From positions 256,001 through 320,000 of the forward strand of contig CAVQBK010000001.1 of the NCBI GenBank assembly GCA_963710755.1: a DNA stretch of 64,000 nt. The letters run 5' to 3'. This DNA is from an uncultured bacterium. Lineage in GTDB: Bacteria > Oederibacteriota > JAAXVQ01 > JAUVAV01. Below the pieces are notes generated by a model. That model saw nothing but the letters and a program-made list of their open reading frames with translations, was not told where the DNA came from and did no database searches. This document shows positions 58,881-61,800 of this stretch, one piece after another; the first letter of the stretch is position 1; each line of letters begins with the position of its first letter. Both the position numbers and the translations under genes were made by a program.

Positions 58881-61800
58881 TCCGAGCGCGCCACCAGCCA
58901 AGGCGCCAAAAATACCACCTTGCGGCCTTGAGACCACGCTGTCCGGGCCAGCCGGTACCAGGCCATGGTTGAATCAAGATTGACTTCATCAGCCCCGGCC
59001 TGCACCAGGGGCTGGTTGAACGCCTCAGTAAGCTTTGGATCCTGCGGGGCCCTGTCCAGATGAAGCCATCGCGCCTGAATCACCAAACCCAGGGCAATGG
59101 CCGTTTGTACTCCATAGACCATTAATGACAAACCACTGACCCCGCTTATGAGGAGCATGGTGAAAATCCATTGCAGGCCTTGACCATGGAGTACCAAGGA
59201 AAGGCTCGATCCCAGCATTAAGCCACTTAGCATAACTGCCATAAAGCCCTGAAGAAGATTGAAATCGCCTTTTTTGCCCCGCTTGTCAGTAGGTTTGAAG
59301 CCAATGGCCTTCCACGGGTTCAGCTTTGCAACCCATTGGCTTGTCATTTCAAGTAACTGTATAAAACGTTTGGCCCAATGGGTGGCTTTTTTCTGCCCAT
59401 AGGCTTTTCTTGCAATAGCCAGGGCGGAAATAAGAAAGGTCGTGGATATGAGTCCGGTCAACGTCAAAGGTCCTGCGCCGGGTTTGACGCCAACCCCTTC
59501 CTCCCATTTATCGTAATAAGTCCCAAAAGCGACCTTTTTCCGCGGTAAACCGAAGATATCCACCGCCGGGAATTCAGGTTGCAGACTTTCAGGCTGCTTG
59601 TTTTGCCCGAAACGTGGTTCCAGGTACTCCATGTCCGCATGACTGCCAAAGAAAACCATTTGCCTGGCTACCAGGGTCCAATCGATCAAACCAAGCGTTT
59701 GTTTCACAAATGTCTCATGGCCTGGTCCCAAATAATTGTTAAAGTAAATCTCAAAGCTTTTACGCATCAGATTGGTTAAGCCCGAAAAACTCTCCGGCTC
59801 ATTCCAATTCATGTTTCGCCATTTCAATGGATTTTGATTATGCCATTTGATAATCGCCAGAGTCACGACTAAAAAATAACGGCTAAAAAATTCCAGTAGG
59901 TAAAAATTGGTTTCATTTTCGGCAAAATAGGTGTGAATGAAATCGATGTTTTTGCCCAACAGACCTAAATTTTGCATAATCATCGCCATAGGCATAAGCC
60001 ACTTTAAATCACGAACCATACCTTTCCCGCTCAAATTGATGGCCCAAATGGATTTCTCCCAATGCAGGCCACCGGTGGTATAACGGAACTTGTCACTGTG
60101 GCCGCGTTGGGCAATCCCATAGGTTGCCACAAAAGGTCTGTTGGTTCTCAAATTATGGAAAAGATCGGCCAAGGTAATATGGATTTCATCATTGGCTGCC
60201 AGATCACCCAATTGACCAAAGGCTTGATAGACGGCATCGAAGAGTTGTTGTTCATTTTGGATATAGGGATAATGCATGTATTCAGCGTATTGGGAATGGG
60301 GTTCAATTTTTTTAACCACAGCCACCAGCCGTTCCTGTTCTTCGGCCAAATCAAAAGGATGTCCCATAGAGGCCGCAAAGGTCTGTCTTTGCCCAACCAG
60401 TTCCCTGATGGATAAGGCTTGAGGCGAGCCATCAATAGTCTGTAACTCATTCATAGTAATTTTAAATAAAAATCGGTCTTGTGTTGGCGAAGATTTGACC
60501 TCAACCGGACGGGGACAACCCAGCCGGGCAAATTTGACAGCTTTGTCCAGCAGTTGCTGGCATTCAAAAACGAGTAAGCGGGGATTTTCTCCCTTTTTCA
60601 ATATTTTTACATCCAGCCCCGACCCGTCTTCACTTTGAAAAATCAGACGTCGCCCCAAAACCGAAATCAGTTTCAGTGGTTGTTGAACACCGCACTTCTC
60701 CAACAACACCTTGCGGTTTAACTCGGGCAAAGAAGATAAATCCAAGGAATAGTCCAGGTTGAGATGCGGGGGCGCCGGTTTATAAGACACTTCCGGAACA
60801 ACGTCCAAAATATACTCCGCCAACTGCAGGGAATGATTGAGCGCTTGGCCGTATATGTCAAATTCAAAATTTTCCAGGGTTGGTTCTTCTTTTAAAAGTG
60901 CCCAGAAAAGTTGGTCTTTTTCCCGTCCGGCCATGGTAATCATATTCTTAATGATGGTGCCTGGAGGTTGGTAGTCTTTTACAGCTTTTGCATTTTTCTC
61001 CAATCGGGCACGAAGGATGGAGAAAACAACCGCGGCGGCCACTGGATCCGCAATGCGTTGACTCAATGTTTTAAACCGATCGATTAGCCGAGTGATCCGT
61101 TTTTCAATAACCTCGGGCTCGCCATTTGTGAAAACACTCACCGGCAAGGCCAGGTACGTTCTCAGCACAGCCACAGCACGGGAGGGCGATACGGCCTTTA
61201 AAACGTCGATAAACCGCCTGATCTCAACATGTAAATTCTCAATGCCATAATATTGGGCCCTTATCCCCCGTTCATCGACAAACTCCCTAATAATCTGAAT
61301 TATGGCATAAAGACTTTCAAAGCCTTTGATTTTACTGATTAAAATTAATTGGTTTAATAATTCATCAGGATCATAACCCGGGACTTGGTCCCCTTTCTTG
61401 CTGATGGCAAGCAGCTGTTTTAAGGCAGGTTCAATCAGCCGGGGCCGCAGCGCGGCTTGCAAAGTCTTCCATTGGCGCAAGTGTCTCATGGCCTTGGCCA
61501 TTGTTAAATTTTGTTGCTCAGGATCGAGAGATCCCGGCTGGGTTAGGGTCCACCGGGCAAGCCAGTTCAGCCAGGTTTGTACCATCTCCGGTGAGGCCGG
61601 CAGGTTAAGGATTAATGTTAAAATCCGATTTTCCAATTTGATTTTTAAAAGAGGATTCGCATCGGGAAAGGTTTGTAAATATTTTTGGACCGCACTGTAA
61701 ATATCCGTTTGGTTTTGAGGATAATTCTTTTCGAGGTTGTAGTATATCAGGATTCTTTGAATACTCATTATCAGGTATTGATAGGTTTGGGGACGGATTA

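Follow-up and report, generated by a model that had tools for sequence, protein, structure and literature searches.

A strongly diverged SidJ-like kinase-fold module between linker repeats in an uncultured soil bacterium

SidJ of Legionella pneumophila, which has a paralog, SdjA, and is represented by PDB entries 6K4K, 6OQQ, 6PLM, 6S5T, 7MIR/7MIS, and 7PPO/7PQE, is the prototype of glutamate-ligating enzymes with a kinase fold, and its homologs outside Legionella are without a known substrate or setting. Here we describe a SidJ-like domain encoded on the minus strand of a 64,000-nucleotide (nt) stretch of the genome of an uncultured soil bacterium of the phylum Oederibacteriota (contig CAVQBK010000001.1, positions 256,001 to 320,000); this whole stretch is referred to below as the window, and plain coordinates are positions within it. 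The domain has the same kinase-like fold and the same large catalytic-loop insertion as SidJ and shares with it the equivalents of R352, K367, E381, H492, N534, and D542, at a structural-alignment identity of 16 to 19%. It differs from SidJ in the replacement of R522 by Gly, N733 by Ala, Y506 by Phe, and D545 by Trp, has no match to the N-terminal or base domains of SidJ or to its calmodulin-binding IQ tail, and is found in a different setting: SidJ is a stand-alone secreted effector, whereas the window domain is a module in an apparently membrane-tethered giant gene. Taken as a whole, the data are probably best explained by a diverged SidJ module, a cassette in a broken giant gene, that is most likely unable to ligate glutamate.

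The preprint of Osinski et al. (bioRxiv 10.1101/2021.04.13.439722) describes SidJ homologs in diverse bacteria, archaea, and viruses that lack both an IQ motif and a SidE partner, share no conserved N-terminal domain, and keep the kinase-site residues; the non-Legionella organisms encoding them are reported there to be without SidE. The relatives of the window domain found in this work (P0003-P0040) fit that description, and the window copy, unlike most family members, does not have the residues of the second step. A SidJ homolog outside Legionella is not new in itself. The giant-protein setting is new as far as we searched: no paper was found that reports giant proteins or tandem arrays with SidJ-like domains, or that covers the head-domain family of FCPU426 discussed below (the sequences in Figure S9 of Osinski et al. 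could be relevant to this point).

Homology to SidJ and conservation of the active site

The first-pass annotation, made by eye from the sequence, had proposed a SidJ-like pseudokinase at 59400-60900 on the basis of eight short motifs. Each of them occurs once, and in the proposed order, in the translation of open reading frame (ORF) 2 (58877..62290, minus strand; 1137 amino acids [aa]), at window positions 59489-60655, and the proposed interval brackets the domain as delimited here (59411..60751, minus strand; ORF2 residues 514-960). The resemblance goes beyond chance, the motifs being aligned column for column with those of SidJ via the family profile. The whole conserved module, which comprises a pre-kinase helical region and the kinase-like domain (59381..61318, minus strand; G000:C1:315381-317318 in the source genome), corresponds to positions 116-730 of the family profile A1 described below, and BLASTP alignments with the five modules of the relative G007 begin at ORF2 residue ~357-402. 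No stop codon or frameshift is found inside the 1137-aa ORF2, and the SidJ-like domain is present in a single copy in the source genome (3.44 Mb).

With ORF2 alone as the query, phmmer found no SidJ among the PDB chain sequences at E ≤ 10, Pfam and NCBIfam scans of ORF1 through ORF5 returned no family above the cutoffs, and in 12 relatives that were scanned no Pfam family was matched within the domain. The sole match in a word-indexed search of 5.8 billion proteins, limited to near lengths, was the window's own protein. A phmmer search of 1.84 billion cluster representatives returned 39 proteins at E ≤ 0.001, including the query itself (best non-self E value, 3.6e-32); these relatives share 24 to 32% identity with the window domain over ~400 residues, mostly within proteins of 700 to 5,500 aa. 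Three of the 38 non-self matches, repeat proteins matching short stretches, were dropped, leaving 35 relatives, and the 25 of these that were no longer than 1,600 aa were aligned with the window domain to give alignment A1 (26 sequences). Against the PDB, the A1 profile matched four SidJ sequence entries at E values of 7.6e-59 to 1.3e-57, covering SidJ residues 324-751, and the next match after them reached only E = 0.002. The local family hidden Markov model (HMM), which includes the window sequence itself, matches ORF2 residues 514-960 at E = 2e-109.

An AlphaFold2 model of the domain, built from A1, had a predicted local distance difference test (pLDDT) score of 80.7 and a predicted template modeling (TM) score of 0.84. 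A Foldseek search of the PDB with this model gave 15 matches at E ≤ 0.001; all 12 rows listed were SidJ chains (E values of 9e-12 to 5e-10; TM scores of 0.55 to 0.62 on the query), and the first non-SidJ row had an E value of 0.015. In VIA-align, ten SidJ entries were matched with Z scores of 21.8 to 23.0 and root mean square deviations of 3.7 to 4.4 over 370 to 383 aligned residues (SidJ residues 325-754), as compared with a Z score of 9.8 for haspin, the best ordinary kinase. The first-pass annotation had named, as the outcome that would refute it, a lack of significant similarity to SidJ in profile or structure; both kinds of similarity were found (profile E = 7.6e-59; Foldseek E of ~1e-11; VIA Z score of 23). 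The sequence profiles and the predicted structure show that the domain (ORF2 residues 514-960) genuinely belongs to the SidJ family of kinase-fold enzymes, of which it is a strongly diverged member.

In what follows, window residues carry ORF2 numbers, and SidJ numbers are those taken from the A1 profile alignment. The equivalents of SidJ R352, K367, H492, N534, and D542, which the first-pass annotation held to be kept, are present as R547, K562, H712, N752, and D761, respectively; E381 is kept as E576, and R500 is probably kept as R718, in a gapped region. The H492 column is invariant in the family (25/25), and the columns of the ATP/metal site are nearly so (K in 23/23, E in 23/24, N in 25/25, D in 25/25, and R in 23/23). 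The proposed changes at R522, at D545, and in the N733 loop were likewise seen: R522 is replaced by G741 in a column that holds Arg in 24 of 25 family members, D545 by W764, and N733 by A939 (Asn in 21 of 24), with ~15 residues missing just before A939. Also changed are Y506 (F720; Tyr in 21 of 25) and E740 (G946). Judging from the alignment, the D545 change matters little, because this column is not conserved across the family and the R-D-x-K motif of the window domain also occurs in its nearest relatives.

The catalytic Asp of the HRD motif of kinases is missing, the aligned residue being T706 within the segment H704-I-T706-L-A-D-L-F-H712. Its SidJ counterpart, Q486, occupies the position of the catalytic Asp of kinases, D166 in PKA (PMC6858067). 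The insertion between T706 and N752 (N534 in SidJ) is 46 residues long; in SidJ, 48 residues separate Q486 from N534, and this long insertion forms the migrated nucleotide pocket (PMC6858067). Part of the insertion was modeled at a pLDDT below 50, and the stretches of the AlphaFold2 model with values that low (model residues 228-241 and 426-442) are exactly the R522 and N733 loops.

How unusual these replacements are can be gauged from a panel of 37 domains, consisting of the window domain, the five G007 copies, and 31 database matches (the three repeat proteins and P0020, P0029, P0030, and P0037 were left out). Arg is found at the R522 position in 33 of the 37 domains; at the N733 position, 35 domains have a residue, which is Asn in 30 of them. 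The R522-equivalent Arg is also missing from P0003, P0013, and G007 copy 1, and the window domain is the only one of the 37 without both equivalents. It departs from the family at 24 of 65 conserved columns (37%), the second highest value in the panel, where the median, read from the list, is ~16%.

Past the domain, the proposed absence of the calmodulin-binding IQ helix, which Legionella SidJ and SdjA have in a C-terminal domain, was corroborated: no profile or VIA alignment reaches beyond SidJ residue 754, and a search for the IQ pattern, in strict or loose form, found none downstream of the domain, where there is a hydrophobic hairpin instead.

Linkers, reading frames, and the giant gene

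ORF2 is flanked at both ends by copies of a linker module of ~290 nt (58805-59095 and 61854-62143) that encodes a transmembrane hairpin and ~85 conserved residues. As delimited in full, linker copy 1 (61853..62350, minus strand) consists of a hairpin at ~62111-62224 and a conserved stretch of ~85 aa ending in NRWFNRLREGLLLP.IVVHEGLRLQ, and linker copy 2 (58790..59263, minus strand) consists of a hairpin at ~59075-59248 and a conserved stretch that is interrupted by a frameshift. The DNA of the two copies is 78% identical over 212 nt and 95% identical over 77 nt, with the repeat parts spaced 3048 and 3049 nt apart. The same module occurs elsewhere: ORF2 residues 18-146 (linker copy 1) match residues 736-858 (BLASTP E = 1.9e-9) and 10725-10783 of a giant protein of G007. 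The linker copies are much more alike in DNA than are the modules that they flank, which suggests gene conversion or recent cassette insertion. Given this high DNA identity of the two linkers around a 3-kb module, movement of cassettes by recombination between linkers is suggested by the sequence.

Two frameshifts of one base each, one near each linker, separate ORF2 from its neighbors on the minus strand. Frameshift 1 (62320..62335) lies between the frames of ORF1 and ORF2. Frameshift 2 (58880..58886), an extra base relative to linker copy 1, creates the ORF2 stop at 58877-58879, and ORF3 continues in the next frame. ORF1 (62109..64000 in the window, minus strand; 1156 aa in all) extends past the window to G000:C1:321579 in the source genome; its N terminus has a signal-like helix, the head domain occupies the part from window 63648 onward, and its last ~60 residues are a wrong-frame reading of the linker hairpin DNA shared with ORF2. 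ORF2 starts at a TTG codon that lies within a hydrophobic helix and is preceded by another 20 open codons in the same frame (open frame of 1157 aa). ORF3 (56080..58989, minus strand) is 969 aa long as listed; its initial ~35 residues are a wrong-frame reading of linker copy 2, and its real reading begins near 58884. ORF3 belongs to no known family and had no usable match in the protein atlas; weak BLASTP matches connect it to P0004 and to residues 5891-6133 of the G007 giant.

The SidJ-like domain was thus once a cassette between two transmembrane-hairpin linkers in a gene of ~3,260 aa or more that joined ORF1, ORF2, and ORF3. The first-pass description of the domain as cargo in a giant protein stands in this historical sense, with ORF1, ORF2, and ORF3 together once amounting to ~3,260 aa; for the DNA as sequenced it is only partly true, the domain lying in a 1137-aa ORF unless the two frameshifts are bridged.

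The topology of such a protein was read by eye from sequence and hydropathy. Its N terminus looks like a signal peptide that would end before a conserved W-A-F-D/E motif, and a helix at ORF1 residues ~600-620, followed by basic residues, may bring the chain back to the cytoplasm. The exported head would then lie outside and the enzyme modules inside, with access to ATP, tethered to the membrane by the hairpins (two helices per linker). The other cargo of the family, including phosphatase, dikinase-type, and GNAT domains, would also need cytoplasmic cofactors.

Downstream of ORF3, ORF4 (55419..56117, minus strand) is in another frame, its overlap with the end of ORF3, up to the stop, being 38 nt, and ORF5 (51027..54782, minus strand) follows ORF4 after a 636-nt gap with stops in all frames. 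Whether ORF4 and ORF5 (together, 51027..56117) were part of the same former giant gene is uncertain. ORF5 residues 980-1158 resemble the extreme C terminus of the G007 giant (residues 12263-12441; 25% identity, E = 3e-8); to judge from this similarity, a C-terminal module may be conserved between the two, with ORF5 possibly representing the severed tail of the former gene. A search of ORF1, ORF3, ORF4, ORF5, and the adjoining paralog ORF0 with the local HMM found no second, degenerate SidJ-like domain (best E = 0.52).

Altered chemistry, decay, or assembly error

In SidJ, R522 positions the donor glutamate, and the R522A variant adenylates but fails to glutamylate, while R500, N733, H492, and Y506 stabilize the acyl-adenylate (bioRxiv 10.1101/2021.04.13.439722); H492 stacks on the adenine. 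The replacements K367A, D542A, and H492A abolish activity and N534A severely impairs it, R352A and Y506A lower it slightly, and E381A and D545A have hardly any effect (PMC6858067). Because the R522 (G741) and N733 (A939) equivalents are lost while the ATP site and H712 are intact, no glutamate ligation is expected of the window copy, which, by analogy with SidJ, is probably not a glutamylase. The residues of ATP/metal binding and adenylation (K562, E576, N752, D761, and R547) and the pocket histidine H712 could still support a putative carboxylate adenylation or auto-AMPylation, after which the reaction would stop or an alternative nucleophile would take over; otherwise, the domain would be an inactive remnant. 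If active, it would be expected to use cytoplasmic ATP, to need no calmodulin, and to have proteins of the cell itself as its targets. That the module stops at adenylation, or hands the activated carboxylate to another nucleophile, is a tentative proposal with perhaps a one-in-three claim on belief; that it is inactive and decaying is a somewhat stronger contender, falling a little short of even.

The first-pass suggestion of a calmodulin-independent relative with possibly different chemistry or target is in line with these considerations. Calmodulin independence agrees with the missing IQ tail, and a different chemistry is a fair reading of the sequence, the calmodulin-binding tail being absent and the donor-glutamate arginine lost; the same losses fit decay equally well. 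SelO/YdiU is an AMPylating pseudokinase, a kinase-fold enzyme that transfers AMP in place of phosphate. Should the window domain stop at adenylation, its similarity to SelO would be loose and a functional analogy only. The targets of SelO are hydroxyl side chains, those of adenylation by SidJ-type enzymes are carboxylates, and SelO does not appear among the profile, Foldseek, and VIA matches listed.

Several points weigh against the reading of this locus as a diverged module, unable to ligate glutamate, in a truly broken gene. The residue map comes from profile and MAFFT alignments at 17 to 30% identity, and gaps in the loop that follows H712 make the R500 and Y506 equivalents (R718 and F720) less sure. 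R715, R729, K734, or R736 in the divergent loop could substitute for R522. The 37-domain panel, whose members were selected for their similarity to the window domain, is not an unbiased sample of the family, the AlphaFold2 model was built from the family alignment and is not fully independent of the profile result, and the topology scheme was read by eye. As for the frameshifts, both fall within or close to a repeat, a place at which errors of polishing are more to be expected, and one soil-metagenome contig (203 nt, depth of 2.5, nine other differences) does not have one base at 62328.

The rival with the best standing, which we put just below an even chance, is that the domain is catalytically dead, being only a scaffold or a remnant of a dying gene. 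Frameshifts on both of its flanks favor this, as do the departure from 24 of 65 conserved columns with loss of the second-step pocket residues, the occurrence of eroded copies elsewhere (G007 copy 1 is without the R522 and N534 equivalents), and the lack of a match in the same-genus genome G001, which is 92% complete. Speaking for function are the freedom of the 1137-aa ORF from internal stops and frameshifts, the complete set of intact ATP-site residues, and an AlphaFold2 model that is confident over most of the fold.

Only slightly less plausible is the explanation that the frameshifts are assembly or polishing errors in the repeat and that the organism makes an intact giant protein of ~3,260 aa or more. 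Relatives hold the domain in uninterrupted frames of 1815 to 12,551 aa, and both breaks are in or next to linker repeats that are 78 to 95% identical. The sequencing runs searched included one DNA run, a soil metagenome with a 0.14 share of the sampled words, and no RNA run was found. Contigs of this metagenome cover 11 of 30 bins and leave the ORF2/ORF3 junction and most of the domain uncovered; four of the pieces are identical to the window sequence, and the fifth is the 203-nt contig mentioned above. By our by-eye reading, the loss of the base at 62328 would join the ORF1 and ORF2 frames and would match the other linker copy better, which is weak evidence for either an unbroken form in a related strain or an error in the assembly at 62328. 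The low depth of this contig and its nine other differences within 203 nt point to another strain, and no contig reaches the second junction. MutL, PheT, ThrRS, RNase D, and other products of the window match their models end to end; because these housekeeping genes are full length, the assembly is not generally prone to insertions and deletions. Family birth and death is seen elsewhere as well, e.g., in a 47-aa head remnant with a stop. On balance, we lean toward both frameshifts being real.

Two other accounts of the frame changes were considered and rejected. Programmed +1 frameshifting would call for a slippery re-pairing codon, which, on inspection by eye, neither site has, and linker copy 1 is read straight through. 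Placement of frameshift 1 in an A4 run near 62295 is contradicted by the ORF2 frame, which is open and repeat-like further upstream, and by the contig, which points to 62328.

That the domain is a fully active, calmodulin-independent protein glutamylase, with basic and polar residues of a rebuilt loop replacing R522 and N733, is improbable. K367, D542, and H492, whose loss is lethal to SidJ activity, and N534 are all kept, several Arg and Lys residues are found in the loop preceding G741, and P0003, P0013, and G007 copy 1 also have no Arg at this position, so that its loss may be tolerated in this branch. Against this stand the behavior of SidJ R522A, which loses glutamylation and keeps adenylation (bioRxiv 10.1101/2021.04.13.439722), the position of the window copy as the only one of 37 domains without both equivalents, the ~15 residues missing before the N733 position, and the departure from 37% of the conserved columns. 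Finally, chance resemblance of motifs or an ordinary protein kinase, for which one could cite the failure of phmmer with the ORF alone to find SidJ at E ≤ 10 and the blank Pfam and NCBIfam scans, is ruled out by the profile, Foldseek, and VIA results (E = 7.6e-59 to SidJ; Z score of 23 to SidJ versus at most 9.8 to kinases) and by T706 at the catalytic Asp position followed by a SidJ-like insertion of 46 residues before N752.

The head-domain family and its genomic context

The ORF1 head domain, of ~630 residues, places the former giant gene in a larger family. ORF1 residues 14-644 are 41% identical to residues 32-662 of P0004, a protein of 3,990 aa (BLASTP E = 1e-145), and the head is 40% identical to residues 74-683 of the G007 giant (BLASTP); P0004 and the G007 giant also carry SidJ-like domains. 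ORF1 has the hydrophobic helix and head that define the family, and ORF2, being without a head, is a member only if frameshift 1 is bridged. In the source genome, 34 head matches fall in 31 large open frames of 635 to 9,474 aa, the largest at G000 C3:1247388, and in one 47-aa remnant with a stop; the head-family open frames sum to ~80,800 aa, roughly 7% of the 3.44-Mb genome. In a scan of one genome per species, which gave 118 confirmed head loci, the best 80 of the 118 were examined and include representatives of FCPU426, Candidatus Firestonebacteria, Candidatus Goldiibacteriota, and one of Omnitrophota. These relatives place the source bacterium in or close to candidate division FCPU426 and speak against Bacteroidota, which the type IX secretion matches in the window had first suggested.

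Alignment A4 (36 sequences) shows the invariant head columns D-L-H-C-N-Y, Q, E, and GG.H. Head profiles A3 and A4 found nothing in the PDB below E = 0.27. A structural model of the head (pLDDT of 84.4) had ChaN, the type III effector HopBA1, and erythromycin-esterase-like proteins as its top seven VIA matches (Z scores of 8.1 to 9.8; 157 to 186 residues aligned) and as its best Foldseek rows (E values of 2.4e-3 to 4.5e-2). The likeness to this fold is modest, and the head differs from it by a long helical insertion and by invariant motifs peculiar to the head (DLHCNY..Q, E, GG.H).

A paralog with the same head, ORF0 (G000:C1:321811-328389, minus strand; L004:11811-18389, minus strand; 2192 aa), adjoins ORF1 upstream as a separate gene just beyond the window. 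Its cargo after the head consists of a low-molecular-weight phosphotyrosine phosphatase, a PPDK_N ATP-binding domain, and a weakly matched PEP-utilizers mobile domain.

The distribution of the SidJ-like domain is patchy: of 10 further genomes in the taxonomic family of the source bacterium, 3 encode it. It is absent from the same-genus genome G001 and was found in none of the 88 searched genomes of other families of the phylum (none of 30 in a smaller sample). The most elaborate arrangement is that of the FCPU426 metagenome-assembled genome G007 (G007:C1:375288-412940), where an uninterrupted frame of 12,551 aa carries the same head and five tandem SidJ-like domains at residues 1334-5605, with linker modules before them (736-858) and long after them (~10725-10783). 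Copy 1 of this array, without the R522 and N534 equivalents, is eroded.

Other genes in the window include one at 35478-39849 (plus strand) for a protein with a type IX secretion system type A sorting tail that adjoins a PorV/PorQ-family protein; the tail and this neighbor point to a type IX secretion system in the lineage. A 437-aa protein (48252-49565, minus strand) has subthreshold matches, far under the cutoff of each model, to the NCBIfam models of Legionella Dot/Icm ankyrin effectors and of MzaA, which most likely reflect shared ankyrin-type repeats only. A 957-aa protein (29597-32470, plus strand) has weak matches to a flagellinolysin-like HExxH region, TolB-type beta-propeller repeats, and an Omp85/BamA-like barrel.

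A bolder view of the family, which we consider unlikely, is that bacteria of the FCPU426 group spend ~7% of their genome on ~30 giant membrane-tethered proteins, that these proteins have in common an exported ChaN/EreA-like head and string cytoplasmic nucleotide- and phosphoryl-transfer modules between hairpin linkers at which cassettes are exchanged by recombination, and that the window copy is adenylation-only or uses another nucleophile. SidJ-like cassettes, up to five in tandem, would then adenylate carboxylates and ligate amino acids on the cell's own (or a prey's) proteins. If this were true, nature would have provided, in the window copy, an enzyme that only adenylates or that uses a different nucleophile, a chemistry as yet undescribed for this fold.

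Returning to the preferred reading, in which a diverged SidJ module is a cassette in a broken giant gene, the locus shows where a SidJ-like domain can occur, namely, in giant and apparently membrane-tethered proteins of a lineage from soil and groundwater that is uncultured and has a member with tandem arrays. The gene family of ~31 paralogs, which appears to shuffle enzyme cassettes, is undescribed as far as we searched. Even if the window copy is merely decaying, it is a clean, checked case of remote homology spotted by eye. As a natural variant that keeps the adenylation site without the second-step residues, it could help to tell one half-reaction from the other or point to a different acceptor.

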